Shown piece after piece: positions 5,395-60,721 of a stretch of 64,000 nucleotides of DNA (positions are counted from its first letter, which is position 1; the number at the start of each line of letters is the position of its first letter). Made by a program: the position numbers and the translations under genes. The notes below the pieces were generated by a model, which saw only the letters and a list, made by a program, of their open reading frames with translations, was not told where the DNA came from and ran no database searches. Source of the stretch: Mobula birostris (lineage: Eukaryota); the NCBI RefSeq assembly GCF_030028105.1, contig NC_092380.1:20857144-20921143 (forward strand). The letters run 5' to 3'.

Positions 5395-5398
5395 AAAT

Positions 5399-5416: not shown

Positions 5417-5497
5417 ATGAACAAATTGGTCAGGAGGCTGGCTTGAATTGATTGGGGAAAAATTCTTGTGATTTGGTAGTGTGGAAATACAGCAGAA

Positions 5498-15371: not shown

Positions 15372-16149
15372 AGAAACTAAGGACCTTCGGTGGAGGGACC
15401 TGTTGGTTTGTGCAGCTGCTCGCCAACTTGAAGCCTGTTCGGGAGATCTTTTTGGAGTCGGCGAGGTAAGGTCGCTGGTTGGGCTTCTGGCGACAGGCGA
15501 AATATCATTTGCAGAGGCTTACAAGCGATTGGAAGAGCATGCGCAACGGCTCTTTCCTGTGTGCTGGAGACCAACAACTCTTCATCCAGTCTCTCATCAG
15601 AAGACAGGGAGTGCAGGGAAGAAGGCGGAGTGCAGGGCTCAGTACTCACATATCCGATCGTTATGTCACTCCCGGCGGAAAGATGCGGCCCAAGACAGTC
15701 ATCTCGGGGGCCTGGAAATCTGCTCATCTCCAAGAGCGAGCACTTCCGCCGGGGATCTTTGACTTTTGGTCAGGGATCGTTTCAGCTGAGGGAGTCCCCG
15801 ACCCTCAGCCAGTTTGGGAGGTCTGTCCCAAGAATTGGGACTTGCTGCGTCCCATTGAACCATCTGAGATTTCCTCAGTTATCCAGAGTATGTCGGGGGC
15901 GGCAGCGGGTCCTGACAGGATTGGAGTTCAACAGCTTCGCCAGACCAACTCCTCGTTCTGGGCGGCTTATTACAACCTTCTATCGGTCATAGGGGAACTT
16001 CCCTCCCCCCTTAAACATTCAAGAATAACCTTGGTACCGAAACATACTGGTGACTTGTCCTCACTGTCAAGTTATCGCCCAACTAACATCTCGTCTGTTG
16101 TCATCAGGGCGTTTCATCGCATCCTTGCCTCCAGATGGTCAACGGTATT
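15372..16149 (+). mobile_element. R2-like (RLE-clade) non-LTR retrotransposon internal fragment, copy 1 (pre-RT region to RT motif 2)
   Basis: RAQYSHIRSL.HSRRKDAA(K)TVISGAW, FDFWSGI, AAGPDRI, SRITLVPK, YRPTNISSVVIRAFHRILASRW resemble R2 regions -1/0/1/2. One frameshift near 15690. Confidence 0.75.
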
Positions 16150-18308
16150 ACATCAATTTGATCAGCGATGTAAGCAAGGTAATGCTCAGAATCATCTTGA
16201 ACAGACTGAGACCTCAGGCAGAAGACATTATTGCTGAGGAACAAGCTGGCTTCCGTAAGGGCAGAAGTACCAATGAGCAGATTTTCAACCTCCGCACCCT
16301 TTGTGAGAAACACCTTCGGCACCAGAGAGAGTTCTACCACGACTTCATAGACTTCAAGAAGGCATTTGACAGAGTCTGGCATGATGCCTTATGGGCCACC
16401 ATGAAGAAATTCAACATGGGGCAGAAGCTGATTCATACAATCTATCAGCTTTATGCCAAGGCAACCAGTGCAGTACTCGCTCAGGGCACCATCGGGGAGT
16501 GGTTCCATACCTCTGCAGGAGTCCATCAGGGCTGCTTCCTCTCTCCCACTCTCTTCATGTCTTCCTGGAATGGATCACGAGTGTTGCCCTTGAAGATCAT
16601 GTGGGCACAGTCAGCATCAGAGGAAGAAACATCACAAACCTAAGATTTGCTGACGACATTGATGGACTTGCAGGAAAAGAGAACGAACTGGCCAACCTGG
16701 TCAGCCATCTTGAAAGAACCTCCACAAAGGTTGGAATGGAAATAAGTGCCGAGAAAATCAAGCTCATGGCATATGCCTATTATGTCATCACAACAGACAT
16801 CTTAGTCCATGGTCAGAAACTTGAGACAGTACAGCAGTTCAAATACCTGGGAGCAATCATCAGTGATGATGGATCAAGACCAGAAGTCCTGGCAAGAACC
16901 GCACAGACAATGACTGTGCTATCCAAACTCAAGACAATATGGAGGGACAGCAACATCACCATGAAGTACAAGATCAGACTCCTGCGTGCATTGGAATTCT
17001 CCATCTTTCTGTACGTATCTGAGACATGGACCCTCACAACACAGCTACAGAGGAAGATGCAGGTATTGGAAATGATGTGCCATCGCAACATCTTGGGCAT
17101 CTCATACTTGGACCACATCACAAACAAGCACATCTGCAAGACCATCCAGCACCACATTGGCCCCCATGAAGACCTTCTCACAACAGTGAAGAAAGCTGAG
17201 ATGGTACGGCCACATAACAAGATCCAGCGGCCTTCTACAAGGAACTGTGGAGGGGAAAAGAAGAAGAGGCAGACAGAGGAAATGATGGACGGATAACATT
17301 AAAGAATGGACAGGGAAAACATTTGCGGTGACCCAGGCTCTGCGACACAACTGCGACAGATGGAACAGACTGGTGCAAAGCTTGTCATGACGGCGCCCCA
17401 ACGACTCCACCAGGAGTTAAGGGTGCAAGGCAAGGCTACGTAGATACGTTCCAATGAGACAGGGAAAGGATGGTAGAGTACAGGAACCATGGTGTACAAA
17501 GGCTTGTTGAAAATCTAGTCAAGAAGAAAAGCTAATGAAAGGTTTAAAAAAAATCTAGGTAATGATAGAGATCTAGAAAATTATAAGGCTAGCAGGAAGG
17601 AGCTTAAGAATGAAATTAGGAGAGCCAGAAGGGGCCACGAGAAGGCCTTGGCGAGCAGGATTAAGGAAAACTCTGAGGCATTCTACCAGTATGTGAACAG
17701 CAAGAGGATAAGATAAGACAGATGTTGTTCTCTTATTCAAGAAAGGGAGTATAGATAGCCCAGGAAATTATAGAACTGCGAGTCTTACTTTAGCAGTTGG
17801 TAAGTTGATGGGGAAGATCCAGAGAAGCAGGATCTATGAACATTTGGAGAGGCATAACATGATTAGGAATAGCCAGCATGGCTTTGACAAAGGCAAGTCG
17901 TGCCTTACAAGCTTGATTGAATTTTTTGAGGATGTGACTAAACACATTGTTGAAGATAGAGCGGTAGATGTAGTGTATATGGATTTCAGCAAGGCATTTG
18001 ACAAGGTACCCCATGCAAGGCTTATTGAGAAAGTAAGGAAGCATGGGATCCAAGGGGACTTCGCTTTGTGGATCCAGAATTGGCTTGACCACAGAAGGCA
18101 AAGAGTGGTTGTAGACAGGTCATATTCTGCATGGAGGTTGGTGACCAGTGGTGTGCTTCAGGGATCTGTTCTGGGACCCCTTATCTGTGATTTTTATAAA
18201 TGACCTCGATGAGGAAGTGGAGGAATGTGTTAGTAAATTTGCTGATGACACAAAGGTTGGGGTGTTGTGGATAGTATGGAGGGCTGTCAGAGGTTACAGC
18301 GGGATCAA

Positions 18309-19083
18309 CAGTCTCCAGCCATCTGTCCGTCGATCCAAAGCTCAACAGGCAAATAGCAAAAGCCCCACTGCCATGGCCAAGCTGTCAAAGAGAGTGTGGA
18401 AAAACAAGCTCACCGCAGCCACCAAGATTGCAGTGTACAGAGCCTGCAGCAAACTGAGTACTCTTCTCTACGGCAGCAGGAGTTGGACAACCTATGCGCC
18501 CCAACAGCACTGCCTCAACAGCTTCCACCTACGGTGCTTGCGTGGGATCCTGGGTATTTCCTGGAAAGACCGTGTACCAAACAAGGACATCCTGGACCAG
18601 GCCATCATGCCAAGCATGTATGTCCTTCTCACATAGCAACGACTGCGCTGGCTTGGCCACGTCCGCTGCACGCAGGATGGCCGCGTCCCCAAGGATATCC
18701 TATACAGAGAACTCGCCACAGGATCCCGGCCCATAGGGCGCTCACTGCTGTGTTACAGGGACGCTTGTAAACGTGACCTGAAGTCTGCTGATATCAGGGT
18801 GGACACTTGGGAAGAGACAGCTGCAGATCGCTGCACCTGGGGGACAGACTGTACGTACAGGCATTACCAATGCAGAGGAAAAACGAACTCGACTGTGGTC
18901 GGACAGAAGAGAGAGAAGGAAAGCTGCGGCAGTGACTACCCAGCCACAGCCATCAGCCTTCATGTACAGCAGCTGTGCCAAGGACTGCCACTCAAGAATC
19001 CGCTTATTCAACCACAGCCAACGCTGTTCCACACCCAATTGAGTCCTAAACCGGGCGTATCCATTGTCTACTTAGACAGAGCC
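18309..19083 (+). mobile_element. RTE-clade LINE 3' fragment (second family)
   Basis: TKIAVYRAC..STLLYGS.SWTTY, FHLRCLRGILGISWKDRVPN, RLRWLGHV, PKDILY.EL, then a C-terminal CSSCAKDCHSRIRLFNHSQRC zinc finger. Confidence 0.85.
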
Positions 19084-20029
19084 ATTAAAATTAAATAATT
19101 AAATAGATGGTAGTAACTATATTTTAATTTGAGTATATTTGCTGTCTTCTAAACATTGATTGCCTGTACCTTTGTGTTTGTGTTGTAAATAAACTTTTAT
19201 TGATTTGTAATTAAACAAACATAACTTTGAAGGAATTGCAAGATCTACAACAGATCACAAAGAACAGTAGAGAATGAATCAGCCTTTGCTTCATTCTATG
19301 AACTATCATAAGTACAGAGGATCAGCGTGATCTTGAGGTCCGTGTCTATCAGACACTTGAAGCTGCTGTGTAGGTTGATAGTGTTGTAAAGGAGGCATAT
19401 GGTGTGTTGGCCTTCATCAACCATGGGATTGCATTCAAGAGCCATGAGGTAATGTTACAGCTATACAAGACCTTAGTTAGAACCACTTGGAGTACTGTGT
19501 TCAGTTCTGGTCACCTCACTATGGAAAGGATGTGGATACTATAGAAAGAGTGCAGAGGAGATTTATAAGGATGTTGCCTGAATTGGAGAGCATGCCTTAT
19601 GAGAATAGGTTGAGTGAACTGGGCCTTTTCTTCTTGAAGCAACAGAGGATGAGAGGTGATCTGACAGATGCGTATAAGATGATGAGAGGCATTACGTGTG
19701 TATAGCCAAATGCTTTTTTACCAGGGTCGAAATGGCTAACATGAGGGGCCATAGTCTTAAGGTACTTGGAAGCAGTTACAACGGGGATGTCAAATGCAAG
19801 TTTTTTCACACAGACCGTGGTAGGTGCGTGAAATGCACTGCCAGCAATGGTGGTAGAGACGGATACAATAGAGTCTTTTAAGAGACTCTTACATAGGTAC
19901 ACAGAGCTTAAAAAAAATAGAGGGCTATGCGGTTCGGAAATTCTAGGCAGTTTCTCGAGTAGGTTACATGGTCAGCACAACATTGTGGGCCGAAGGGCCT
20001 GTAATGTGCTGTGATTTCTATGTTCTATA

Positions 20030-20385
20030 TTCAAAGCAAATTTGGACAAGGCACAATTGCAACAACAGGAAGTGATTAACTTGGGACAGAAAATTTAATG
20101 AGGCAAATGAAAGATCACTTAAGATCACACAAAGGTCGTTATATCATCAAAACCTCCTACAACAGTCCAGCAACTTCAATTATTTCATGGTTTGCACAAC
20201 TACAGCAGAGTATGGGTCAATTCATAAGCTGAAATTACTAAACCCCTCACTAGTCTGCTAAAAGGCAGCAAGCACTCCACTGTCCCTGTGACATTGAATG
20301 CAAAACAGATGGAAAATTTTCAAACTTTAAAGGTGATATCACCTGCACTACAAATCCCTGATACAGGAAGACCATTTACCCGACA
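20030..20385 (+). pseudogene. Retrovirus-like (ERV) pol relic: RT thumb/connection; not in the ORF track
   Basis: Manual translation through stops: FKANLDKAQLQQQEVINLGQKI..PPTTVQQLQLFHGLHNYSRVWVNS*AEITKPLTSLLKG..FQTLKVISPALQIPDTGRPFT. Confidence 0.65.
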
Positions 20386-20640
20386 CAAAGTGCTGGAGGG
20401 ATCCATCAAGGCAGATGTGAAGAGGAGTGAGCAGAAGCAAAGAGAGAGCATAGACAGCTAAGGGAAGTATCAACATCAGCACCTCCAAAACTTGCCACAA
20501 CATTTACTCGCAAAAACTGCAGCTAGGCCTGCCACTCCAAAATTAACCTGTACAGCCATAGGAGGTGTTGCAGCTCTACAACAGACTGACCCATAGAGTA
20601 CACTCCACCATCCTTTGAGATAGACAGATGCGATCAACGC
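20386..20640 (+). mobile_element. RTE-clade LINE extreme 3' end (third fragment), old
   Basis: TFTRKNCS*ACHSKINLYSHRRCCSSTTD* parallels the zinc finger at about 18960-19030. The following 3' UTR ccatcctttgagatagacagatgc resembles 19061-19083. Confidence 0.6.
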
Positions 20641-20746
20641 AGAAAACCAGGTACTGGCAAAGGGTTGACAAACTTTTTCTTGCAACCCCACTAATTGCTA
20701 CGGAAGAAGAAGCAGGTCATTTGGGGTGATGGCCAGTGCTTTAGAG

Positions 20747-21585
20747 CAGCCATTCTCAACAGGTGCCCCCTTGGGGGCCCTGGCACATTTGAAGGGGGCC
20801 ACTGACTGAAAACTGTGAGAAAGGGAGCCCCAAGGGTTTATGGGGGCCCTGGTAACTGAACCTTTGAAATACCCAAGCAGCAATCTTCGCTGGATTCAAC
20901 AGTTTCCCTCCTATTTATATTATCTTTCCAATACACCATTTGAATTTGGCGCACCTGGTAAGTTCAGTGCTTAAGCTCCTCCCACACAGCCTCACTTCAG
21001 AGTCAGTCACGAATCAGACTGCACCAGGTCAACGTATTCAATCAAGGGTTCTCACATCCATTATCACCATACTTCACTCTCCGAAGATCAGCATCTTGCT
21101 AGTCCTTTCTTAGCCTAGTAACCCTTTAAAGTATATGTGTTTGGATATAGTATACGTTAAGATAGGTTGTGAAAAGTGTTTATTACTGCATATGAAGTCA
21201 CCAGAAAAAAAATCCCCTGGCTCAGTGTGACAGCATTTTTTGTCAGTAACGTATCTGTATTTCACGCACTTATTATTTTCAGAAATAATTCCACCCATGA
21301 GTTCCTTGGCGAAAAAAAGTGTCGGCAATATTCAGCGGAATACTTATCGTAATGATTTCATCGCATCTCCACAAAACCCATCTTTGCTTATTTGTTTGAA
21401 CTGCATGACTACATTGTCAAATGAAAGCATGAGGCCAAGCACATTGAAAAAACATTTGGATACCTCGCATCCAGAGAAGAAGGATAAACACTTAAGATTT
21501 CTTCAAAAACCTTCGAGATAATTTCAAGAGAAGGCCAATGCTAAAACAAATGCTTACTCAAACATCACAGAAGTTAGAGAAGAGC
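20747..21585 (+). mobile_element. hAT (Buster/Charlie) DNA transposon, left end plus N-terminal BED-finger fragment; right part not seen
   Basis: TIR CAGCCATTCTCAAC preceded by CTTTAGAG (nnnTAnnn target typical of Buster). Protein fragment ICLNCMTTLSNESMRPSTLKKHLDTSHPEKKDK at about 21390-21490. Confidence 0.75.
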
Positions 21586-27500: not shown

Positions 27501-27562
27501 TTCTTTTTCAACCCTCTTTTTTGGATCAAGCATATCTGGTTTGGAAAACAAAGGGTATAATA

Positions 27563-28607
27563 ACACTCACAACGCGCTGGAGGAACTCAGCAGGTCGGGC
27601 AGCATCCGTGGAAAAGATCGGTTGACGTTTCGGGCCGGAACCCTTCATCAGGACTGTAGGGGGAAGGGGCAGAGGCCCTGTGAAGAAGGTGGGAAGGAGA
27701 AGGCTGGTAGGTTCCAGGTGAAAAGCCAGTAAGGGGAAAGATAAAGGGGTGGGGGAGGGGAAGCAGGGAGGTGATAGGCAGGAAAGGCGAAGAAGGAATA
27801 GGGGACAACGTAATGGGTAGTAGAAGGAGGCGGAACCAAGAGGGGGGTGGTAGGCAGCTGGGGGAGGGGGCAGAGTGACATAGGGACAGGAAAGGGAGGG
27901 GGAGGGAATTACCAGAAGTTGGAGAATTCTATGTTCATACCAAGGGGCTAAAGACTACCTAGACAGTATATGAGGTGTTGCTCCTCTGACCTGAGTTTAG
28001 CCTCATCATGGCAGTAGAGGAGGACATGTATGGACATATCTGAATGGGAATGGGAAGCAGAGTTGAAGTGGGCGGCTACTGGGAGATTCTGTCTGTTTTG
28101 GTGGACGGAGCGGAGGTGCTCGACGAAGCAGTCCCCCAATCTGCGTCGGGTTTCACCGATGTAGAGGAGGCCACACTGGGAGCACCGGATGCAATAGATG
28201 ACCCCAACAGACTCACAAGTGAAGTGTTGCCTCACTTGGAAGTACTGTTTGGGGCCCTGAATGGTGGCAAGAGAGGTGGTGTAGGGACAGGTGTAGCACT
28301 TGCGCTTACAGGGATAAGTGCCAGGTGGGAGATCCGTGGGGAGGGACCGATCCCTGCGGAAGGCGGAGAGGGAAAGATGTGCTTAGTGGTGGGGTCCTGT
28401 TGAAGGTGGCGAAAGTTGTGGAGGATAATGTGTTGGATCCGGAGGCTAGTGGGGTGGTAGGTGAGGACAAGGGGAACTCTGTCCCTGTTGTGGTGGCGGG
28501 AATGTCCACCTATCTTTTCCACGGATGCTACCCGACCTGCTGAGTTCCTCCAGCACGTTGTGAGTGCTGCTTTGACCCCAACATCTGCAGATTATTTTGT
28601 GTTTATG
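27563..28607 (-). mobile_element. Penelope-like element fragment (GIY-YIG endonuclease) with inverted terminal repeat, inserted in L1 B
   Basis: ORF 27948-28235: FTCESVGVIYCIRCSQCGLLYIGETRRRL..F.EH. 13-bp TSD AAAGGGTATAATA (27550-27562 / 28608-28620). About 55-bp inverted repeat, 27564-27618 vs 28512-28566. Confidence 0.88.
27619..27656 (-). ncRNA. Minimal type I hammerhead ribozyme motif (Penelope-type), stem I degenerate
   Basis: Minus strand reads CAGTC-CTGATGA-AGGGTTCCGGCCC-GAAAC-GTC-AACCG: CUGAnGA core, stem II, GAAA, palindromic ACGU stem III, GUC cleavage triplet. Confidence 0.7.
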
Positions 28608-31640: not shown

Positions 31641-33280
31641 CAGGTGTCCCCCGCTTTTCGAAAGTTCGCTTTACGAAACCTCACTGTTACGAAAGACCTA
31701 CATTAGTTGCCTGTTTTCGCTAACAGAAGGTGTTTTCACTGTTACAGAGAAAGGCAGCGTGTGGGAAAAAGCAGTGTGCGAAAAAAATCAGCGCGCGATA
31801 AAAGCAGCGCGCCGCACGCCCCAAGCAACCACTCCTCCCCTGGATTCTGAACAGCATTCTCGCCGGCATTGCTTAAACACGTGCCTGTGAGCAGCCATTT
31901 GCAAGATGAGTTCTAAGGTGTCGGAAAAGCCTAAGAGACCTTGTAAGGGTGTTACACTTAGCGTAAAACTAGACATAATTAAGCGTTTCGATCGTGGTGA
32001 ACGAAGTAAGGACAAAGTGATCTTGGCTTGTGGAAGTTGACGAAGATGATGTTGAAGAGGTTTTGGCATCCCAGGACCAAGAACTGATAGATGAAGAGCT
32101 GATGCAATTGGAAGAGGAAAGGATAATAATCAAAACTGAATTCAGTGGTGAAAGCGGAACTGAATGTGAAGCAACTACATGAGATTTTCGCTGCAATGAT
32201 AAAGTATGACTTTAATTTTGAAAGGGTACGTCAGTTTAGGTCATATTTGCAAGATGGTTTGAGTGCTTACAAAGAACTGTACGATAGAAAAATGCACGAC
32301 GCTCAGCAGTCAAGCAAGCCTTCCACGTAAGCCACAGCAGACGACGAACCTTGACCTTCGACATTGAGGCAGGCAGACATAGGAGAAGATGACCCGCCTG
32401 CCCTAATGGAAATAGACGACAATGAGATGACACCCCAGTGTCCCACCACCCCAACCCCCAGGCTGTGGACAGATACCGATTCATGGAGAATGCAGCGGTA
32501 GCCGGGAGGCACACAGCACATCTTTAAGAAATAAGCCAAAACAAACATGCTAATTAATTAGGTGCCGCCCGGCATGTAAATGTCAGCCCAGATCAGAGGC
32601 GATAGGCGATTGCCAATTTTGACGCCTCTGATCTGAGCCGACAATTATATGCCGGGTGGCACCTAATTAATTAGCATGTTTATTTTGGCTTTTTTCTTAA
32701 AGATGTGCTGTGTGCCTCCTGGCTACCGCTGCACCCCTGCGTGCTTTGCAGAGCGGTATCGGTCGGCAGCCCGGAGGGTGGAGGCTACTGCACCACTCCA
32801 ACCTGCGACGACTCAGCCTAACACACCATCATCAGTGTGCTCGGCACTTTCCCAATTCCGGTAGTGAAACTACACTGTACATACGTTATTTCTACTTAAT
32901 ATCGGCTGTGTATTTCTATGTGTTATTTGGTATGATTTGGCAGCTTCATAGCTTAAAGGTTACTGGACAGAGTGTTCTTGCCGAGAGCGCTTGCGTGAGA
33001 TTTTCGCTACGGAGAACAGTGCAGGCAATGATTGTGGAAAAGCATTTCTACTTTATATTGGCTGTGTATTTATCATATCATTCCTGCTTTTACTATATGT
33101 TACTGTTATTTTAGGTTTTATGTGTTATTTGGCACGATTTGGTAGGTTATTTTTGGGTCGGCGTATGCTCACAAAATTTTCCCATATAAATAAATGGTAA
33201 TTGCTTCTTCGCCTTACGACATTCTGGCTTATGAACCATTTCATAGGAACGCTCTACCTTCGGATGGCAGGGGAAACCTG
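31641..33280 (+). mobile_element. pogo/Tigger-like (Tc1-mariner) internally deleted transposon
   Basis: TA TSD (31639-31640 / 33281-33282). TIRs CAGGTGTCCCCCGC / GCAGGGGAAACCTG. CENP-B-like HTH start MSSKVSEKPKRPCKGVTLSVKLDIIKRFDRGE at 31907. L1 A resumes with SDHAP. Confidence 0.88.
32491..32733. repeat. Long imperfect palindrome (111-bp arms, 21-nt spacer) inside the Tigger-like element
   Basis: tgcagcggtagcc...gatcagaggcg (32491-32601) is the reverse complement of cgcctctgatc...ggctaccgctgca (32623-32733), with scattered mismatches. Confidence 0.92.
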
Positions 33281-33658
33281 TATCAGACCACGCTCCGGTT
33301 GTCCTGTCTATAATTCTTCCTGGTGCCCCTCAAATAAATAAGCATTGGCATTTTAATTCCACCTTACTGTCAGATAATAATTTTGTAAAATATATGGAGG
33401 ACCAGATAATCTTTTTCCTTAATACCAATACGTCCCCTGAAACCTCAAGCCTGGTTGTTTGGGACACTTTGAAAGCATTTTGGGGAGACTTCCGTTGGCG
33501 GTGGATGGAATAACAGCATTTTACAGCCGCTCCTAGTTTACTTTACTTTTCCTACTTTCTAACCTGATCTGACACTATGACTACGAGAACTGCTAAAGGT
33601 AAAAAAAAAAGATTCTTCTACATCTTTGGATTCTATTATTGAATTGATGCAAAACCAC

Positions 33659-47300: not shown

Positions 47301-47789
47301 TCATTTCATTAGATGCTGAGAAAGCCTTTGATAGAGTTGAATGGTCATATTTATTCAGTACACTTGAAATGTTTAATTTCAGTCCGATATTTATATCCTG
47401 GATTAAACTGATATATCATACCCCTCTAGCTTCGGTTTTTACTAATAATCAAAGATCTCCCTTCTTTCGATTATTTTGTGGTACTAGACAGGGTTGTCCT
47501 TTTAAGTCCTTTATTATTTGATATCGCTTTAGAACCTCTAGCAATTGCTATCCGAGATTCACTAAATATTTTAGGTATTACTCGTGGGAATGAGATACAT
47601 AAGCCATCATTACATGCCGATGATTTATTACTATACATTTCTGACCTAGAGAAATCCATTCCTGCAATCTTATCTTTGTTGGCCAAGTTTAGCAAATTTT
47701 CTGGCTATAAACTAAATCTTAATAAGAGTGAATTTCTTCCATTGAACGTGTAGGTTCCAAATTATAAATCCTTACCATTTAGATTGGTT

Positions 47790-50700
47790 TGTGGCGGCTC
47801 GCCCACGCAGCAAGCGAACCAGCTCCAGCAGTCGCCAGCGAACCTGCAGCCAGCGGCAACCGATTGGAATCTGAGTGCGGGGCAGACCTCGGCCCAGAGG
47901 CTAACGTCACTTCCGCCCCGCTGGGAGCGGGTACTTAAGCGCGTGCAGATTCAAACAGTAAATGGTTCAACCCGACCTTGCTTGAGTCAGTGTGTTGTTT
48001 TCACTCGTAGTGTATCAGCGCGACTACATTGGTGACCCCGAAAGTCCAACGGCACTTGGACCCAACATGAACAACTCGGCTCTGCAGAATGCAGTTTCCC
48101 TTAAACTGCCAACCTTCTGGACCACCCAACCCCTGGTCTGGTTTGAGCAAGCGGAGGCCCAGTTCCAGGTCAGGTAAATTGTCTCAGATGCCACCAAGTA
48201 TTACTACGTGGTGGGCGCCCTCGACCAGGAGACAGTGGGTCGCGTTATCGACTTTCTGCATCAGCCCCTGGCAATAGACAGGTACGAGGCTCTCAAGGTC
48301 CTGTTAATCTGCACATTTGGCCTCTCCCGCTGTGAACGGGCCGCGCGGTTACTGCATATGGACGGCCTGGGCGACTGTGCACCATCAGCCCTGATGAGCG
48401 ACATGTTAGCACTGGCAGACAGCCATAAGCCTTGCCTGCTGTTTGAACAGATCTTTTTGGAGCAAATGCCAGAAGATATCCACCTCCTGCTAGCAGATGA
48501 AGACTTCAGAGACCCGCCCGGGGTGACTGCCCGCGCAGACACGCTTTGGCATGCCAAACAAATGGGCAGAACCATCATCGGAATTAGTGCTGCAGCACGA
48601 CCCAAAGCTCAGCCCTTCCGCACCCCAGCAGCAGAGCACCTAACACCCACACCAAGAGACGGCACCACTTCTGAGTCTTGGTGTTTTTATCATCAAAGGT
48701 GGGGTTCCGGGGCCTTCCGCTGTCGACCGCCATGCTCGTTCCAGGGAGAATGCCAGGACCAGCGGTCACTGATGGCTACAGCGGCTGGTCACCATGATAG
48801 CCTCCTCTACGTTTGGGACAAGCTCTCCGGGCGAAGATTCCTGGTGGACACTGGGGCAGAAATCAGTGCCCTACCCCCCTCAAGCCACGATACCCGAGCT
48901 AGAAGAACAGGACCGGAACTTATGGCAGCCAACAGCAGCACCATCCGCACCTAAGGAACAAGAACCATCCCCTTGCAGTTCAGTTCCAGCCACTTTACAT
49001 GGACATTTACGCTGGCTGCAGTGTCACAGCCATTGCTAGGTGCGGACATCCTCCGGGCACACCGCCTGCTCGTGGATTTGAAGGAACGACGATTGGTCGA
49101 TGCGAAGACGTTCCAGTTTTTCTCCCTTGGTGAGGCCAGGTTGCCGGCCCCGCACCTGGAGTCTGTCACTCATTCCGACAACGAGTTCGCCAACGAGTTA
49201 TCGGAGTTCCCTTCTATCATCACGCCACAGTTTTCCTCAACAAACCCCAAGCATGGCGTGATGCACCACGTCCCCACACAGGGACCTCCCCTTCATGCCC
49301 GGGCCCGCAGGCTACCGCCCGACAAGCTCCGCCTCGCGAAGGAGGAATTCAAGAAGATGGAGGAGATGGGGATTGTGCGGCATTCCAACAGCCTGTGGGC
49401 CTCCTCACTCCATATGGTGCCCAAGTCCACGGGAGGGTGGAGACCGTGTGGCGACTATCAGAGACTGAACGACGCCACCATGTCCGATCGCTATCCAGTA
49501 CCACACATCCAGGACCTTATGGCCAACCTGCACGGGGCCCACATCTTTTTGAAGATTGACCTGGTCCGAGGGTATCATCAGATCCCAGTCCACCCGGATG
49601 ATGTACCCAAGACAGCCCTCATCACCCCCTTTGGCCTGTTCGAGTTCCTCAGGATGCGGTTCGGGCTCAAAAACGCAGAGAAGACTTTCCAGCGCTTGAT
49701 GGACGCAGTGGGGCGAGGTCTGGACTTTCTGTTCATCTACCTGGATGAAATATTTATCGCCAGCCGCTCCTGCCAGGAACATCTAGCACATCTACGCCTG
49801 CTCTGCTGCCACCTAAATGACTACGGTCTGGCTATCAACCCCGCCAAGTGCCAGTTTGGCCTATCCGCCATCGACGACTTGGGACACCGGATCGACCGCC
49901 ATGGAGCCGTTTCTCTGCCGGCGAAAGTTGAGGCCATCCGCCAATTTGCCAGGCCCAGCACGGTTAAAGGCCTGCAGGTGTTTATTGGCATGGTTAACTT
50001 TTACCACCGTTTCCTGCCCTCAGCAGCCCAGATCATGTGGCCCCTTTTTGGCTTGATGTCCGGCAAGGTCAAAGAGGTCACCTGGACAGAGGTGGGGAAA
50101 ACGGCTTTCGAACAAGCCAAGAACGCGCTAGCAAACGCCACACTCCTAGTCCACCCCCGGGTCGACGTCCCCACTATTCTCACTGTGGATGCCTCCGATG
50201 TGGCAGTTGGCAGCGTGTTCGAGCAGCTCATCAAAGGCCAGTGGAAGCCGCTCGCTTTTTTCAGCCAGCACCTACGACCCCCGGAACTTAAGTACAGTGC
50301 TTTTGACAGGGAGCTGCTGGCCCTGTACCTTGCCATCTGGCACTTCAGGTTCTTCCTGGAGGGGAGGAGTTCACGGTCTTCACAGACCACAAGCCCCTCA
50401 CTTTCGCGTTTGCCAAGGTGTCAGACCCGTGGTCGGGCCGCCAACAATGCCATCTGTCGTACATCTCGGGAGTTTACCACCACGATCAAGCACATCTCCG
50501 GGAAGAACAGCGTGGTGGCAGATACGATGTCATGAACCTCCGTCCAATCAGTGTACTCTCTGTCTCCGGGGGTGGGTTATGTGGCATTAGCTGAAGTGCA
50601 ATGGCTGGACGGTGAGATGCCAGCGTACCAAACCACAGTCTCAGGACTCCACCTCGAAGACATATCCATTGGGCCTGAAGGTAATGAGCTCCTTTGCGAT

Positions 50701-51888
50701 GTGTCCATCGGGCAACCTCGGCCTATTGTCCCAACCGCTTGGAGGCGCCGCGTTTTTGACACCTTGCACAGTTTAGCCCACCCTTCCATCCGGGTGACCA
50801 TCCGGCTGATCACAGACAGGTTTGTGTGGCATGGCCTGCTCAAGGAGGTCGGGGACTGGGCCAGGACATGCACGCACTGTCAAGCATCCAAAATCCAGAG
50901 GCACGTGAGGGCCCCACTGCAACCCTTCCAGCCGACACATACGAGGTTCGAACACGTCCATGTGGACATCGTCGGCCCACTGCTGGTTTCGAGAGGAGCG
51001 AGATACCTGTTCACCATGGTGGACAGGTTCACGAGGTGGCCAGAAGCTGTCCCACTTGCTGACATGGCCCTGAAATTTCCACAGGCAATTGAAGTCGGCC
51101 CTGATGGCACGCATCTGAAGGCCAGACTGGGTGGACGAACTCCCCTGGGTGCTGCTTGGTATCCGCACAGCACCTGAGGAGGACCTGGCCGCATCATCGG
51201 CCGAACTGGTTTACTGTGCCCCCCTCACAGTTCCCGGTGAGTTTGTGCCAGCACCCCATGGCCTGGAGGACACACCTGCTGGGGTCCTACCTTATCTCCG
51301 GGAGCGGCTTGGAACACTTGCTCCAGTCCCAACGTCCCACCACAGAACAACACCCTCTTTCGTGCCCAGGGACCTACAACAGAGCAAGTATGTTTTCGTT
51401 CACCAAGGTGCAGCAACCATACGAGGGACCCTACAAGGTGGCGTGCCATAATGGAGCGACCTGTGTTCTCGACATCGGTGGTAGGGACGAGACTTCTCCC
51501 ACTGACCGTCTCAAATTGGCGCATCTGGACCCTGAATGCCCGGTTGCAGTACCACCGCCATGACATAGAGGCTGGCCACCTAAAAGGACTGAGTGTGCAG
51601 GCTGCGGACTCTGCACCTCCTATCGCCAGTTCTGGGGGGGGGGGGGGGTCATGTGGCGTTTCACCCGAGCAGCAAGCGAACCAGCTCCAGCAGTCGCCAG
51701 TGAACCCGCAGCCAGTGGCAACCAAGAGGAATCTGAGTGCAGGGCAGACCTCGGCCCGGAGGCCAACGTCGCTTCTGCCCCGCAGAGAGCAGGGGTTTCT
51801 GGGAGCAGGTACTTAAGCGCGCGCTGATTCAAACAGTAAATGGTTCAACCCGAACCTGCTCGAGTCAGTGTGTTGTTTTCACTTGTAG
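47790..51888 (+). mobile_element. Second tRNA-Trp-primed Gypsy element (related family, different LTR), inserted in L1 D
   Basis: 5' LTR 47790-48028, PBS TGGTGACCCCGA at 48030, gag 48067-48770, protease FLVDTGAEIS, RT-RH ORF 48973-50535, integrase from 50551 with an internal deletion, poly-G PPT, 3' LTR 51652-51888 missing its terminus and TSD. Confidence 0.93.
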
Positions 51889-52662
51889 CCTATGAGCTGA
51901 TTATTTTACTTATTTAGGAGTAAAAATCACCAAGTATAAGGATTTATTTAAGGTTAATTTTTTTCCTTTATTTGATCAGATTAAATGTTTGTTTACCAGA
52001 TGGTCACCAATGATATTGTCTTTAATTGGTCGGATCAACACCATCAAGATGATGATTTTACCCAAGTTTCTATATTTATTTCAAGCATTGCCTATCTTTA
52101 TTCTGAAATCCTTTTTTGATAATGTTGATTCAAAAATTTCTACATATATATGGCAGAATAAAAATCTTAGACTAGGTAAAAGATACTTACAGAAGCCCAA
52201 AAAGGAGGGCGGTTCAGCATTGCCGAACTTTAGATTTCATTATTGGGCAATTAATATTCGTTACTTAAAATTTTGGACATGGAATTGGGATACAGTTTTA
52301 TGTCCACAATGGGTTAATCTTGAAGGTAAATCCGTTTCAGGGTTTTCATTAGGTTCTATTTTAGGGTCTCCGCTTCCGTGAACAAACATATAGATAACCC
52401 AATAGTTAAGTATACTTTTCGAATATGGTTTCAGTTTCGAAAATTTTTTGGATTGAATCAATTTATTTTAGCAAGCCTTATTCTACCTAATTTTCTTTTT
52501 CAACCCTCTTTTTTGGATCAAGCCTATCTAGTCTGGAAAACTAAAGGTATAATATGTTTTTCTGCAAACAACAGGAATTCTGCAGATGCTGGAAATTCAA
52601 GCAACACACATAAAAGTTGCTGGTGAACGCAGCAGGCCAGGCAGCATCTCTAGCAAGAGGTG

Positions 52663-52698
52663 CAGTCGACGTTTCAGGCCGAGACCCTTCGTCAGGAC
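52663..52698 (-). ncRNA. Minimal hammerhead ribozyme core (left arm of the hairpin, opposite strand)
   Basis: Minus strand reads GTC-CTGACGA-AGG(GTCTCGG)CCT-GAAAC-GTC-GACTG, with a 3-bp stem I (GTC/GAC). Confidence 0.65.
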
Positions 52699-52706
52699 AA
52701 AGGGCC

Positions 52707-52739
52707 CTGACGAAGGGTCTCGGCCTGAAACGTCGACTG
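52707..52739 (+). ncRNA. Minimal hammerhead ribozyme core (right arm of the hairpin)
   Basis: CTGACGA-AGG(GTCTCGG)CCT-GAAAC-GTC-GACTG. The 5' strand of stem I is mostly lost at the hairpin loop. Confidence 0.65.
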
Positions 52740-53301
52740 CACCTCTTCCTAGAGATGCTGCCTGGCCTGCTGCGTTCACCAGCAACTTTAATATGTTTTT
52801 CTGATTTAGTTTTGAATAACTGTTTCACGTCTTTTGAACAATTATCTAATAAATGTAATTTACCTAGATCCCATTTCTTTAGGTACTTACAGATTAGAAA
52901 CTTTTTAAATACTGTTCTTACTACCTTTCCGATTTCATACTCATCGGATATAATGGAAAGAATTTTAGATTTAAATCTTTTTCAGAACGGTTCAATAACA
53001 ATTATTTATAATATGATTATGAAAATAAATCCAGATGTATCGAACTCAATCAGGAACGACTGGGAAAGGGAACTTAAGCTTACTTTACCTATAGAGAAAT
53101 GGCAAAAAATTCTTCAATTAGTTAATTCTTCTTCTATATGTGCTAAACATGCGTTGATACAGTTCAAAGTAGTACACGGAGCTCATATGTCCAAGGATAA
53201 ATTAGCTCGCTATTACTCTCATATAAATCCTGTATGTGACAGATGTCATTCTGAGACAGCTTTGTTAACTCATATGTTTTGGTCATGCCCTTTGCTGAAG
53301 A

Positions 53302-54752
53302 AGTTGTTACAAGAGAGTTTTCAATTTGTGCAGGAAAACATTATTTCCTTGAACTCTGAACTTAAAGAGACGAAGTGTCAGATAGCGGCTATTTCAGCCC
53401 GCTTGGGAAAAGTCTCAACATAGGATTATCAATTTGGAAGCAAGATCTCGTTGGAATAATATTCGAATTGTTGGACTGAAGGAAGGATCTGAGAGTGGGG
53501 ATTTATTGGACTATTTTGCTAACTTGTTTCAATCTCTGTTTCTGGATATTTTACCTCAACCTCCCGATATTGCAAGAGCACACAGAATTTTCTCTTTGAA
53601 ATCTCAGGATCCGAATAAACCAAGGGCAATTTTGGTCTGCTTTCTTCGTTTCAAAGTTAAAGACCAAATCATGAAATATGCAAGGAAACACAAAGTTTTT
53701 AAATTCAAGGGTTCCAAGATTCATTTTATGAAGATTATCCATGGGAAGTTATGGACCTGTGGTCTAAATTCGCTCCAACCAAGAAGATAGCCCATGATAA
53801 GGGATTATTCCCATCACTTTGCTATCCAGCCCGATTAAAACTATTTCCCAAAGGTTCCACTCCACGTGTTTTTCTGGACCCCAAAGTGGCATTGGACTAT
53901 GTTAACTCTATTTCGGTTGCAGCCAAGGTTTGAATGGTTTTAGGTCTGCTGAATAATTGTTTCAGAAAGAAAACAAGCTTTGAAGATTTCTGATTTACTT
54001 AAGATGTCCTTTGATTGATGGACCATTTAAAGAAGATGTGAACTTTTTGATGTAACTGATGAATGACTTTTCCAAAATCTGTTTGGTTTACTGAGTGAAT
54101 TAACACAGCGGACAGATTGTTAACCGGTTTATTTGTTTCTATCCTCCTTTTTGTTTCATTAATTGATAAGTTTTCATAGTTCATAAGGATTTTTTCTTAT
54201 ATATACATAGTTGGGAGTGCTTAGTAGATAGATATTTAGGTTTTTTTCTAAAAATAGTTTTTCATTGGGTGTGTAAGTTAAATGGAAAATGGCGCTGATT
54301 TTTCTTCGTTAGAGATTACATAGGCATTCTTCTTTGTTTAATTTTATTGTTTTGGCATTTTTGGAGATTGTTTCTGCATTCCCCAGCTTATTTTTAAGGA
54401 TTAAGTATAAACATTTTTTTTCCTCTGCAGGGCTTTCCTATTTTAGGGCCGTGAGTTTTTTTTTGTAACTGGGGGGAGGAATTAAGGAAAGCTTTTAAAA
54501 TCACCATTATAAAATGGGTAGCTCGCGGAGTCTGTCTCTCTTTTTTTCACTTCTATGGGGAGGGATTTCGGCTTTTTTTAACCAAATTTCGGGCTTTCCG
54601 GGGTGGTGAGAGGACTGGGGTTAGTTTTGCGTTATAAGATCAATTGTAGGATTGATTTTAGTTTTCTTTATTGTATTTTTTTCCAATTATGAAGTTCCGG
54701 ACCATGCGTGTTTTGTACATGGTTATACTTATCACCGCCAGTTTTGATTAAC
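53302..54752 (+). mobile_element. L1-clade fragment 'E': ORF1 C-terminal half plus downstream T-rich region
   Basis: LEARSRWNNIRIVGLKEG, IARAHRI, PRAILVCFLRF, FPSLCYPARLK. Joined directly to the broken end of L1 D. Confidence 0.8.
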
Positions 54753-57700
54753 CCATAGAACCATAGAAACTACAGCACAGAAACAGGCCTTTTGGCCCTT
54801 CTTGGCTGTGCCGCACCATTTTCTGCCTAGTCCCACTGACCTGCACATGGACCATATCCCTCCATACACCTCCCATCCATGTATCTGTCCAATTTATTCT
54901 TAAATGTTAAAAAAGAACCCTCATTTACCACCTCGTCTGGCAGCTCATTCCATACTCCCACCACTCTCTGTGTGAAGAAGCTCCCTTTAAACTTTCCCCC
55001 CTCACCCTTATCCCATGTCCTCTGGTTTTTTTTCTCCCCTTGCCTCAGTGGAAAAAGCCTGCTTGCATTCACTCTATCTATACCCATCATAATTTTATAC
55101 ACCTCCATCAAATCTTCCCTCATTCTTCTACGCTCCAGGGAATAAAGTCCTAACCTATTCAACCTTTTTCTGTAACTGAGTTTCTCAAGTCCCGGCAACA
55201 TCCTTGTAAACCTTCTCTGCACTCTTTCAACCTTATTTATATCCTTCCTGTAATTTGGTGACCAAAACTGAACACAATACTCCAGATTTGGCCTCACCTA
55301 TGCCTTATACAACCTCATCATAACATTCCAGCTCTTATACTCAATACTTTGATTAATAAAGGCCAAGGTACCAAAAGCTCTCTTCATGACCCTATCTACC
55401 TGTGACGCCACTTTTAGGGAATTTTGTATCTGTATTCCCAGATCCCTCTGTTCCACTGCACTCCTCAGTGCCTTACCATTAACTCTGTATGTTCTACCTT
55501 GGTTTGTCCTTCCAATGTGCAATACCTCACACTTACCTGTATTAAACTCCATCTGCCATTTTTCAGCCCATTTTTCCAGCTGGTCCAAGTCCCTCTGCAG
55601 GCTCTGAAAACCTTCCTCACTGGCTACTACACCTCCAATCTTTGTATCATCAGCAAATTTGCTGATCCAATTTACCACATTATCATCCAGATCATTGATA
55701 TAAATGACAAATAACAATGGACCCAGCACTGATCCCTGTGGCACACCACTAGTCACAGGCCTCCACTCGGAGAAGCAATTCTCTACTACCACTCTTTGGC
55801 TTCTTCCATTGAGCCAATGTCTAATCCAATTTACCACCTCTCCATGTATACCTAGCGACTGAATTTTCCTAACTAACCTCCCATGCGGGACCTTGTCAAA
55901 GGCCTTACTGAAGTCCATGTAGACAATATCCACTGCCTTCCCTTCATCCACTTTCCTGGTAACCTCTTCGAAAATCTCCAATAGATTGGTCAAACATGAC
56001 CTACCACGCACAAAGCCATGTTGACTCTCCCTAATAAGTTCCTGTCTATCCAAATGCTTGTAGATTCCGTCTCTTAGTACTCCCTCCAATAACTTACCTA
56101 GTACCGACGTTAAACTTACTGGCCTATAATTTCCCGGATTACTTTTCAATCCTTTTTTAAACAACGGAACAACATGAGCCACTCTCCAATCCTCTGGCAC
56201 CTCACCTGTAGACAGCAACATTTTAAATATTTCTGCCAGGGCCCCTGCAATTTCAACACTAGTCTCCTTCAAGGTCCGAGGGAACACCCTGTCAGGTCCT
56301 GGGGATTTATCCACTTTAATTTTCCTCAAGACAGCAAGGACCTCCTCCTTTTTGATCTGTACAGTTTCCATGATCTCACTACTTGTTTCCCTTAATTCCA
56401 TAGACTTCATGCCAGTTTCCTTAGTAAATACAGACGCAAAAAAACTATTTAAGATCTCCCCCATTTCCTTTGGTTCCGCACACAGCCGGCCACTCTGATC
56501 TTCAAGAGGACCAATTTTATCCCTTACAATCCTTTTGCTCTTAATATACCTGTAAAAGCTCTTTGGATTATCCTTCACTTTGACTGCCAAGGCAACCTCA
56601 TGTCTTCTTTTAGCCCTCCTGATTTCTTTCTTAAGCATTTTCTTGCACTTCTTATACTCCTCAAGCACCTTATTTACTCCCTGCTTCCTATACATGTCAT
56701 ACAACTCCCTCTTCTTCTTTATCAGAGTTGCAATATCCCTTGAGAACCAAGGTTTCTTATTCCTATTCACTTTGCCTTTAATCCTGACAGGAACATACAA
56801 ATTCTGCACTCTCAAAATTTCTCCTTTGAAGGCTTCCCACCTATCGATCACCTCCTTGCCAGAGAACAACCTGTCCCAATCTACGCTTTTTAGTTCCTTT
56901 CTCATTTCTTCAAATTTGGCCTTCTTCCAGTTAAGAACCTCAACCCTAGGACCAGATCTATCCTTGTCCATGGTCAAGTTGAAACTAATGGTGTTATGAT
57001 CACTGGAACCAAAGTGCTCCCCTACACAGACTTCTGTCACTTGTCCTAACTCGTTTCCTAACAGGAGATCCAATATTGCATCCCCTCTAGTTGGTCCCTC
57101 TATATATTGATTTAGAAAACTTTCCTGAACACATTTTACAAACTCTAAACCATCTAGACCCCTAACAGTATGGGAGTCCCAATCAATATATGGAAAATTA
57201 AACTCGCCTACCACCACAACTTTATGTTTCCTGCAGTTGCCTGCTACCTCTCTGCAGATTTGCTCTTCCAATTCTCATTGACTATTGGGTGGTCTGTAAT
57301 ACAATCTCCCTAATGTGGCCATACCTTTCCTGTTTCTCAGCTCCACCCATAAGGACTCAGTAGACAAGCCCTCTAATCTGTCCTGCCTGAGCACTGCTGT
57401 GATATTTTCCCTAACAAGCAATGCTACTCCCCCACCTTTCATTCCTCTGCCTCGATCACATCTGAAACATCAGAACCCTGGAATATTAAGCTGCCAGTCC
57501 TGCCCCTCCTGTAGCCAAGTTTCACTAGTTGCTATAACGTCATAATTCCACGTGTCAATCCACGCCCTCAACTCGTCTGCCTTCCCCGCAATACTCCTAG
57601 CATTGAAATATATACACATCAGAAGATTTTTACCACCACTCACAACCTTTCTTTTAGCGAATTTGCTTGAACTTTTAACATCATTTATTTTCACCCCAGC

Positions 57701-57799
57701 CACACTGTCAGCTCTGGCACTCTGGTTCCCATCCCCCTGCAAATCTAGTTTAAAGCCTCCTCAATAGCACTAACAAACCTCCCTGAAAGGATATTGGTG
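54753..57799 (-). mobile_element. CR1-clade LINE, 5'-truncated, near-complete ORF2; the only large minus-strand element
   Basis: ORFs 57470-57742, 55298-57271 (657 aa; QHGFVRGRSCLTNL, KFADDTK) and 54827-55297. Tail repeat (ttctatgg)n at about 54753-54770. Confidence 0.95.
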
Positions 57800-57859
57800 C
57801 TGGTATGCGTGTATTCATGTGTTAAATAAAATAAAGTGTTTAATGGTAGATAAACAGAT

Positions 57860-57945
57860 AAACCAATACCCAGCTAAATTAAGGCTTTTTGCCAAAAATT
57901 CTGGGGTTCGTATTTTTGAGAACCCAGCTGAAACATTGCGTTTTA
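57860..57945 (+). mobile_element. Short L1 ORF1 C-terminal fragment (family of element F)
   Basis: caatacccagctaaattaaggctttttgccaaaaattctggggttcgtatt...cccagctgaaacattg matches 59346-59430. Confidence 0.7.
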
Positions 57946-59531
57946 AAGATTAAAAGATTGACAAGATTAAAGAAATTGATAAAAAATATTCCATTGCTCC
58001 TAGTAAGGAGTTTTATAAACAGAGAGTCGAACTTCAAATGGAACATAGCTTATTACTAACATCCTTGATTGAAAATCAACTAACAAAAACCAGAAGTGAG
58101 TTTTATATACATAGAGATAAATTGGGTAAATTATTAGCTAATCAATTGAAAACTGCTTCGGTTAAATGTCAAATTCTTAAGATTCGTAAAAATTATGATA
58201 CCTTGACAGTTGATCATGATGAGATAAACAAATCTTTTCAAGAATTTTATACCTCTTTATATTACTCAAAGTTTCCCTCATGATCCCAACATAATGCATG
58301 ACTTTTTATGGAAATTGAACTTTCCAAAATTATCACCCGAAGAATGTTTAACATTAGAAACTCCTATTACGGATGAAGAAATAAAGGGTGTTATTTCCTC
58401 AATGAACGCTGGCAAAGCACCTGGTCCAAATGGCTATACAGTAGAGTTCTTTAAGTTTTTTTCTTCTATTCTTTCTCCTTGATTGTGTAGAGTTTTTAAA
58501 GCAGCAATTAGAATAGGTAAATTACCACAACCATTTTATGGAGCTTCTATTTCTCTAATTCTTAAAAAAAAATAAAGGACTCCGCTTTCCCCCTGTGGAC
58601 ATGTAAGACACAGTTTCTTTCTGTCCGCCTTAATTTCTCCCTTTCCTGACTCAAACTTTGAAATTTTAACTTTATTCAGTTGGATCCTGTAGAGCGACAA
58701 TTATAATTACGTCCAACACAAGAAGCACCAAAAGAAATCCTGAACGGTAAGCTTAAAAAAGCTGACGAGACTTCAGAGCAGCCACCTGGATAAATAGATT
58801 AGAGTCTCAAATCAGCTATATCGTTCCTGAATTAACTCAACTAAAAGAAAGATTTCTCCCTTTAAAGGAAAAAAATTGACTCTTTGACCCTTGATCTTAA
58901 AGAGGTGAGTCGAAATACGGCTGATATTTCTTCTTGTCTGGAAAAGGCTCAACAATGGATCGTGGATTTGGAGGCTCGCTCTTGTCGGAACAATATTCGA
59001 ACTGTTGGATTAAAAGAGGAATCCGCCGACGCACTGGACCATTTTGCTAAGATGTTTCAATCTTTATTTCCGGAGGCTTGCCTACAACTGCCTGAGATTG
59101 AAATGGCTCATAGAGCAGGTGCTTCAAAATCCTCAGATCAAGGTAAAAACAGGCACGTCGTTGTGCGCTTTCTTCGTTTTAGAGACAAAGACTATTATTA
59201 AGCTTGCAAGAAAACAAAGGTGGTTCAAATTTCAAAGCTCTGAGATTTGTTTTTCGAAGATTTTCCACGTGAAATTGTTCAGAAACGTTCTGGATTTGTT
59301 GTCGTAATGGGTACGGCTTATCAAAGACAGTTTCATCCATCTCTTCAATACCCAGCTAAATTACGGTTTTTCGTCAAAAATTCTGGGGATCGTATATTTA
59401 TGGACCCAGCTGAAGCATTGTGTTTTATTAATTCTTTTCCTGACGAGTCTGAAGTCTGAAGTTTAAATCATTTACAATTGTTTGATTGTCTCCCGACTTA
59501 AGGAGCAATGAGGTCGGAAGATTTGATGGGT

Positions 59532-59786
59532 TGTAGTCGCGCTGATACGCTATGAGTAAAAAGAAGACACTAACTCGAGCAGGGTTGGGTTGAACCGTTT
59601 ACTGTTTCAATCGGTGTGCGCTTAAGTACCTGCTCCCAGCAACCTCCACTCTCTGCGGGGCAGAAGCAACGTCGGCCCCCGGGCCGAGGTCCGCCCCGCA
59701 CTCTGATTCCTCTCGGTTGCCGCTGGCTGCGGGTTCGCTGGCGACTGCTGGAACCGTTTCGCTTGCTACGTGGGCGAGCCACCACA
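59532..59786 (-). repeat. Solo LTR of the 47790-51888 Gypsy family
   Basis: Reverse complement aligns with 47790-48028 and 51652-51888. TG...CA ends. Near-TSD GGGT / GGAT. Confidence 0.9.
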
Positions 59787-59946
59787 GGATATAGAAAGTC
59801 TTTGCCTTAAAATGTACTTTTATCTCTGAAATAGACTGGTTTGGATGGTTTTAACTTCAGAAGACATAACGCGGGAACTGTCGGAAGACTATAGATGCCT
59901 TTGAACCATCTAGAATTTCTTCCTGTTTGCAGCATTTGAATGAACT

Positions 59947-60721
59947 AGAAACCAAGGACCTTCGGTGGAGAGACCTGTTGGTTTGTGCGGCTGCTCGCCA
60001 GCTTGAAGCCTGTTCGGGAGATCTTTTTGGAGTCGGGGAGGTGAGGTCACTGGCTGGGCTTCTGGTGACAGGCGAAATATCATTTGCAGAAGCTTACCAG
60101 CGATTGGAAGAGCATGCACAACACTTTCCTGTGTGCTGGAGACCAACGACGCTTCATCCAGTCTGTCATCAGAAGACGGGGAGTGTGGGGAAGAAGGCAG
60201 AGTGCAGGGCTCAGTACTCACATATCCAATCGTTATATCGCTCCCGGCGGAAAGATGCGGCCCAAAACGGTCATCTCGGGGGCCTGGAAATCTGCTCATC
60301 TCCAAGAGTGAGCACATCCGCCGGGGACCTTTGACTTTTGCTCAGGGATCCTTTCAGCTGAGGGAGTCCCCGACCCTTGGCCAGTTCGGGAGGTCTGTCC
60401 CGAGAATTGGGACCTGCTACGTCCCATTGAACCATCTGAGGTATCCTCAGTTATCCGGAGTATGTCGGGGGCGGCGGCAGATCCTGACAGGATTGGAGTT
60501 CAACAGCTTCGCCAGACCGACCCCTCATTCTGGGCGGCTTACTACAACCTTCTATCGGTCATAGGGGAACTTCCCTCCCCCTTTAAACGTTCCAGAATAA
60601 CCTTGGTACCGAAGCATACTGGTGACCTGTCCTCACTGTCAAATTATCGCCCAGGTAACATCTCCTCTATTGTCATCAGGGTGTTTCATCGCATCCTTGC
60701 TTCCAGATGGTCGACAGTATT
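59947..60721 (+). mobile_element. R2-like fragment, copy 2
   Basis: Colinear with 15372-16149 over its full length (about 90% identity by eye) and carries the same motifs. Confidence 0.78.

Follow-up and report, generated by a model that had tools for sequence, protein, structure and literature searches.

Two internal R2 pieces outside ribosomal DNA

We analysed a window of 64,000 nucleotides from Mobula birostris (contig NC_092380.1, positions 20,857,144 to 20,921,143, forward strand), in which two copies of a fragment of the retrotransposon R2 were found. R2 normally resides only in ribosomal DNA (rDNA). The copies, and a lesion common to both, lie at the following positions of the window.

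15372..16149, plus strand: R2 relic copy 1, from the post-Myb-linker helix to early reverse transcriptase (RT) motifs; possibly also 15368-15371 and 16150-16151
59947..60721, plus strand: R2 relic copy 2, same interval as copy 1; it has a stop at 60309 and a 3-nt deletion of its own
15692..15694, plus strand: extra base (+1 frameshift) in copy 1, common to both copies
60264..60267, plus strand: the same extra base in copy 2

Copy 1 (778 bp) and copy 2 (775 bp) are identical in 715 of 778 aligned columns (91.9%), the remainder being 48 transitions, 12 transversions and one 3-nt gap. Self-BLAST of the window paired them at E=0.0 and found the flanks unshared. A preliminary description of this DNA had given the same coordinates and lengths with about 90% identity, in agreement with these measurements.

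The identity of the fragment was assessed by protein searches. A search of PDB with the downstream frame gave 10 matches, with R2 entries first (1e-6) and L1 entries later (0.0025). A protein library search returned 822 of 1.84 billion representatives at E<=0.001, and figures for these homologues refer to the best 150 of the 822. Among them the best full-length homologue, P0002, aligned to both frames of both copies and itself matched R2-named structures at 2.7e-84; full-span matches reached at most ~40% identity. On a profile of 28 R2 proteins the copies span positions 169-427 of 1042. Its upstream region (positions 169-275) was matched in the window only at the two copies, and nothing in the window matched before position 169 or after 654, the zinc finger and endonuclease regions. 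Less informative were a word-indexed protein search, in which none of 1724 and none of 87 candidates was an R2 relative, Pfam, which assigned no family to the R2 frames, the ESM Atlas, which gave unnamed clusters only, and a scan of metagenome contigs for exact patterns from the R2 piece (0 matches).

The nearest described relatives are R2-1_MBi of M. birostris and R2-1_HBer of Hypanus berthalutzae (PMC13188248, Table S2). The RT frame of copy 1 is identical to R2-1_MBi at 79 of 115 residues without a gap (hand count). In Table S2, 28S sequence flanks R2-1_HBer on either side, its twin row also has 28S flanks at the target, and R2-1_MBi has an upstream 28S cell. As the closest relatives are listed with 28S flanks, the piece derives from a canonical rDNA-type R2 lineage; judged by protein homology and the 28S target of these relatives, both copies are members of the R2 lineage. 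As a separate observation, rows 151 and 177 of the same table show that a killifish entry, flagged as a potential contaminant, equals the H. berthalutzae sequence over the first 400 residues.

The copies themselves are not an R2 insertion: a 28S target site, a full single open reading frame (ORF) and an intact 3' end are all missing. Both stop in early RT, and neither is therefore a 5'-truncated product of target-primed reverse transcription (TPRT) with an intact 3' end. Rfam gave 0 matches of any kind in the 64,000-base window, which thus contains no rRNA. When the 30-nt flanks were compared, those of copy 1 had no common word of 4 nt or longer, and those of copy 2 had only TTGC, away from the junctions; since no word was found at the junctions, neither copy is surrounded by a target-site duplication (TSD). 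These results bear out two points of the preliminary description, namely that an internal R2 piece lies outside rDNA, here among long terminal repeat (LTR), RTE and L1 sequence, without being a normal TPRT product, and that it is accompanied by no 28S sequence, R2 3' end or TSD.

The common frameshift and related relics in sequencing reads

Further relics were sought in reads, using contigs from 4 of 18 listed runs compared with positions 59790-60760 at 80% likeness; all figures are for the listed contigs. In reads of organism A, three contigs equal copy 2 with 0 differences, and two others differ from it by 21 and 17 letters, the same counts that separate copy 1 from copy 2 over those stretches.

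The stretch that carries the extra base is one open frame in R2-1_MBi and R2-1_HBer. The +1 frameshift is missing from three relic contigs, one in run X1 and both that cover the site in run X5, the latter being consistent with a single lineage-specific event; another X1 relic gave no verdict on this point. The two copies agree against other contigs at 12 of the 33 R2 positions displayed, spread over 59992 to 60556. Six of these 12 differences change the residue, five of them at sites where R2-1_MBi and R2-1_HBer are identical (by eye). Because the shared frameshift is absent from these three contigs, the copies descend from one dead relic and not from two R2 insertions, and the simplest reading is that one broken relic was copied once. 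The earlier suggestion that the piece moved as one unit is supported by this frameshift and by the other states absent from the remaining relics. A programmed frameshift was ruled out, as other relics and the described relatives do not have the extra base.

Relics of this kind are few. Summed depth over the R2 part was 20-61 in X1 against 4.5-9.8 per listed contig, which by our own arithmetic corresponds to ~4 relics, and 21-59 in X5 against ~16 per contig, or 2-4 pieces. Other relics end at 60202, 60525 or 60695 or have 75- and 89-nt deletions, which argues that the ends of the two copies are not standard for the family. Several relic alignments start at 59947 or end at 60721. Two relic contigs extend 287-288 nt beyond 60721 and two extend 545 and 2110 nt to the left of the start; these may be longer relics or same-ended ones. 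No high-depth or lesion-free R2 was seen among the listed contigs at 80% likeness, which show presence rather than absence, and none of the listed X5 contigs (~96/100 of the run read) bridges either junction of copy 2, which again fits a single lineage-specific event.

A 382-nt contig of another relic was present in X9 at depth 3.8 (that X9 is RNA is a guess), and another in X10, which is probably DNA. The relic over 60442-60695, seen in X10 and X5, ends at 60695 and has a 1-nt deletion at 60582 in both organisms. As this deletion is common to them, R2 relics outside rDNA probably predate the split of the two organisms.

Host elements and junctions

The copies lie in two different TSD-bounded long interspersed nuclear elements (LINEs), and each links the 5' part of its host to the 3' part in sense orientation. 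The host of copy 1 is an RTE element that also contains nested LTR elements.

4497..17435, plus strand: RTE insertion, host of copy 1, inside a CR1 element; TSD 4488-4495 / 17436-17443 with a 7/8 match
5043..15367, plus strand: LTR retrotransposon with integrase before RT; its 5' LTR is cut at 5043 and its 3' LTR ends 4 nt before copy 1
10803..15141, plus strand: gypsy-type element inside the preceding element's 3' LTR; TSD ATTG

CR1 protein positions 2-149 and then 157-253 are collinear across the RTE insertion. The 5' part of the RTE ends at 5042, and the part from RT to the tail begins at ~16151, with ~530 RTE codons missing between them; RTE homologues match 4807-5040 and 16152-17417. The gap contains, in order, the LTR retrotransposon, 4 nt and the R2 piece. 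By its domain order the element at 5043-15367 is Gmr1-like, the label used in the preliminary description. Within the gypsy-type element, an open gag-pol frame of 1234 codons (11405-15109) is followed, straight after its integrase, by the last 47 bases of its own 3' LTR. The RTE protein shares up to 84% identity with marine invertebrate elements, Petrolisthes giving the best named match, which may be a lead to horizontal transfer. An exact-pattern scan of metagenome contigs for the RTE junction gave 0 matches, and no RTE relative was found in the viral contigs searched.

The host of copy 2 is an L1 unit that itself lies in another L1.

58578..60995, plus strand: L1 unit, host of copy 2, in the ORF2 of another L1; 11-bp TSD 58567-58577 / 60996-61006
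59532..59786, minus strand: solo LTR within the L1 unit, related to the LTRs at 47790-48019 and 51652-51897

This unit has ORF1 (58869-59393, E 6e-16), a 3' untranslated region (UTR; 60722-60995) and AATAAA (60971-60976), and is without ORF2; the outer L1 ORF2 is continuous across it. With ORF1, no ORF2, a 5' UTR, a 3' tail and a TSD, it is HAL1-like at this site. Its sequence next to copy 2 is multicopy, with summed X1 depths of 55-899 for the left flank and 2196-2519 for the right flank, and loose ends of contigs gave the native L1 continuations at both junctions. The ends of copy 2 are therefore true junctions. We considered whether the left flank, in which the frame stays open for 25 codons, might be further R2, and rejected this, since that flank is repeated in many copies and continues differently in its native form. 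A side observation concerns 59807-59853 in the non-coding part of this L1, which is matched by a 343-nt contig of depth 1436 in X9 (RNA being a guess). In DNA runs, too, its depth greatly exceeds that of adjacent sequence, possibly owing to an abundant short element that shares the segment.

The preliminary description had identified the hosts and noted that no flank is shared, both of which stand. The hosts are, however, more than neighbours of the copies, as each copy bridges the two parts of one LINE.

The junctions define how closely the copies agree. Copy 2 has microhomology with its host of 1 nt on the left (59947) and 3 nt on the right (60719-60721). On the left of copy 1, the LTR and the shared start are separated by 4 nt (15368-15371) that correspond neither to the LTR nor to the L1 sequence flanking copy 2; on its right, 1-2 nt (16150-16151) past the shared end are not explained by the RTE frame. 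Copy 1 may thus slightly exceed the shared interval at both ends, and its original left end is masked by the LTR and a deletion; as the preliminary description allowed, the adjacent LTR may have set this edge. The ends of the copies agree within ~4 nt, and a base-exact match is not provable. The claim that both copies start and stop at the same base consequently holds for the overlap and not for copy 1 as a whole, given its possible extension of ~4 nt to the left and 1-2 nt to the right.

Throughout the window (1-64000), elements of the CR1, RTE, L1, gypsy and Gmr1-like types are densely nested, nearly all of them on the plus strand. Among 119 of 171 ORFs submitted to Pfam (93 plus, 26 minus), transposable element matches fell on the plus strand for 30 of 32 ORFs, with 3 weak unrelated matches set aside. 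Likewise, tblastn with 8 queries covered 23,903 bases on the plus strand and 1,974 on the minus strand, self-hits included. The main exceptions on the minus strand are a CR1 with a long ORF (~54750-57800) and the solo LTR. The window could be a unistrand locus of the PIWI-interacting RNA (piRNA) type or the intron of a minus-strand gene. Elsewhere in the window, long palindromes resembling MITEs (transposable elements of the miniature inverted-repeat kind) lie at 32491-32733 and 52600-52802, with arms 88-92% identical, and 21231-21518 gave a weak Spin-doc zinc-finger match (E 4e-5), probably a DNA-transposon remnant.

Origin of the second copy and comparison with known systems

We hold with moderate confidence that local DNA-templated patching, joined by microhomology, made the second copy. 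Templated insertion by microhomology-mediated template switching is a known mechanism (PMC8421209). An old R2 of the ray lineage would have left few dead relics outside rDNA, one of which gained the +1 frameshift and several point changes. This frameshifted relic would then have been the template for one local copy at the DNA level, a templated filler at a break joined by microhomology, which was patched into the gap of the ORF1-only L1 unit 45 kb away. Copy 1 is the likelier donor because it is slightly longer. The near-identical ends may be partly a matter of masking, as an LTR lies 4 nt from the left end of copy 1 and a deletion would have taken what lay beyond, and partly coincidence selected by a very large scan. 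Both copies would have been inert ever since. Besides the frameshift and the other states that set the two copies apart, several observations favour a patch: the two sister copies lie 45 kb apart though only ~4 relics occur in the X1 run, the copy 2 junctions show 1- and 3-nt microhomology with the native host and neither TSD nor tail, the R2 piece does not fold in any special way, and other relics have different ends. What the data show is that the piece is R2, that both copies go back to one dead ancestor, that relics are few, how the hosts are built and that copy 2 has microhomology; a DNA rather than an RNA template, the direction of copying and the part played by chance at the ends are inferred.

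Several results weigh against it. Neutral decay following a simple duplication does not predict a synonymous bias, and the differences between the copies show one. The dN/dS ratio between them (NG86) is 0.30. Synonymous changes numbered 30 of 60, against 18.2-18.5 expected from class-matched permutations (P 0.0001-0.0007); 29 of 59, against 20.9 expected under a strand-aware null (P 0.008); and 16 of 33, against 9.4 expected, when only non-CpG changes were counted (P 0.010). Controls in shifted frames were flat (P 0.43 and 0.91). CpG changes were strand-skewed 20:6 in the R2 pair and 12:13 in five LTR pairs, and strand-skewed CpG decay across the locus, considered as a sign of transcription, was accordingly not seen. 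By our own estimate, random breakpoints would bring both ends within ~4 nt about once in 10,000 cases, for a pair chosen out of a very large scan for exactly this property. The exact GTAAGA that meets the right junction of copy 2 is uncommon, with 23 occurrences of GTAAG[AT] on the plus strand of the window. Finally, it is conceivable that the ends are standard after all, the sequence beyond the ends of the other relics having lain outside the comparison.

A different origin, possible and rather doubtful, is that the dead relic gave rise to an RNA or cDNA with fixed ends, which was captured twice, with a few bases trimmed each time. The RT might have jumped while a LINE or LTR element was retrotransposing, or the molecule might have been used to fill breaks; its source might have been a cleavage product from a transcript of either the strand-biased nest or a third, longer relic. 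This would account for two nearly identical ends without any carried flank, and it suits the fact that both hosts are TSD-bounded LINEs whose 5' and 3' parts the piece joins in sense. The strand bias suggests a transcribed locus. The LTR element abutting copy 1 is similar in age to the split of the copies, as would fit one complex capture: non-CpG divergence is 5.4% and 6.5% for the Gmr1-like LTR pair and 5.0 +/- 0.8% for the R2 copies. However, the other LTR and MITE pairs in the window diverge by 5.8-8.8%, and because most are similarly old, the age match does not discriminate. No process that would define the ends was found in structure or splice geometry; RNA folding of the R2 piece revealed nothing special (z 0.06), leaving structure unsupported as what set the ends. 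Two captures within 45 kb would, moreover, need local action in cis or selection.

An elaboration of this idea, which we find unlikely, would make the window a unistrand locus of piRNA type in which processing-ended R2 RNA or cDNA was twice captured by unrelated retroelements and kept, the synonymous bias then reflecting the sampling of different R2 variants. Were it true, the locus would have gained antisense sequence against an element unable to insert there, and R2 sequence would have an rDNA-free route into a strand-biased locus. Should patching instead be the correct explanation, the case would be a modest, well-resolved one of dead R2 spreading outside rDNA as repair filler in LINEs.

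It is less credible still that the copies are two members of a frameshifted R2 sublineage that went on expressing a selected N-terminal half (zinc finger-Myb), or that one copy underwent patchy conversion. The synonymous excess lies upstream of the frameshift only (14 of 23, P 0.004; downstream 15 of 36, P 0.21), a division into halves that was picked after the data were seen, and the first 7 differences between the copies are all synonymous. Patchy conversion by another R2 variant could, from these patterns, lie behind the bias. The listed contigs, however, contain no multi-copy frameshifted family, and independent captures of sublineage members would also need the same ends and the 45-kb proximity.

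Splicing was considered because of two motifs around copy 2, which the preliminary description had taken as possible bracketing splice sites.

59916..59932, plus strand: acceptor-like motif in the multicopy host L1, 14 nt before copy 2
60722..60727, plus strand: donor-like GTAAGA, the native start of a very high-copy L1 3' UTR segment

It is quite improbable that splicing made the piece an exon, with its acceptor at 59932 or at the AG of 59947-59948 and its donor at 60722, and that the RNA was then retroposed to give copy 1. The shared right end does meet GTAAGA in the context of copy 2, the acceptor-like tract is strong, and both motifs are uncommon in the window, where 33 acceptor-like motifs occur on the plus strand. 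Both are nonetheless native L1 sequence present in many copies, the donor-like segment reaching a summed depth of 2519 in X1 and 4097 in X5 with loose ends before 60719. Moreover, GT is missing from the left junction and AG from the right one in the native L1, and the copy 2 unit is therefore not a spliced product. As for copy 1, all 5 printed RTE homologues have N-Y-R-T-I-S-L at the junction; an acceptor in the Arg codon would need 4 nt before the Ile codon, where 2 are present, and the 4 nt to the left of the copy are unlike the L1 flank. Splice dinucleotides are not found at both junctions of donor and product, and with no geometry that fits the two, the proposed bracketing is not supported. 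A GT-AG intron on the minus strand was also ruled out, as relic contigs align from 59947 and not from 59945 or earlier.

A dispersed non-autonomous family with standard ends, or a non-site-specific family resembling R2, is very improbable. Both organisms do have more relics, several of whose alignments start at 59947 or stop at 60721, as those of any longer relic would; yet the relics number ~4 by depth, with other ends and deletions, there is neither tail nor TSD, and the closest described relatives have 28S flanks. The common dispersed family that the preliminary description had raised against itself is thus not what the listed contigs show. It had also raised a larger segmental duplication with flanks deleted later, the least probable origin of all: this would explain the common dead ancestor and the proximity, but each copy lies in a different LINE with TSD and outer host intact, so that the flanks would need to have been replaced rather than simply lost, the surroundings of the two sites have nothing else in common, and the TSD-bounded hosts largely exclude it. 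Real and somewhat odd as it is, the feature comes down to a single duplication of a dead relic that leaves two things over, the near-matching ends and the synonymous bias.

In sequence, the window resembles unistrand piRNA clusters such as flamenco, being a dense collection of transposable element fragments almost all on one strand; its orientation could also have been biased by lying in the intron of a minus-strand gene. The copies cover the same protein region as R2-1_MBi and R2-1_HBer and are collinear with them. Those elements are full-length single ORFs at rDNA, whereas the copies are a frameshifted internal piece of 778 bp without zinc finger, Myb, endonuclease, 3' end or 28S flank.

ORF1-only and bipartite non-autonomous LINEs, including HAL1, are known (PMC5786205). 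Both hosts resemble these in consisting of 5' and 3' LINE parts, and the L1 unit in having ORF1 only. They differ in that their gap is occupied by R2 sequence foreign to them, and the listed contigs include no other that bridges the copy 2 junctions, so that this is not an amplified family. A literature search by title and abstract start, with subscription papers mostly outside its coverage, retrieved no internal R2 piece bridging two unrelated LINEs. Templated insertions share with copy 2 a filler whose source lies elsewhere, microhomology over a short stretch, the loss of some target sequence and the lack of a TSD; templated insertion alone predicts neither breakpoints at the element boundaries of the donor nor a synonymous bias. 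A parallel in R2 itself is provided by remnants in birds (PMC5035012), which are likewise old, mutated, truncated or internally deleted, some with non-rRNA flanks. The bird remnants described there mostly keep an R2 end or a 28S-like flank, whereas the piece in this window is wholly internal and is found two times, in two other LINEs, with ends that almost coincide.

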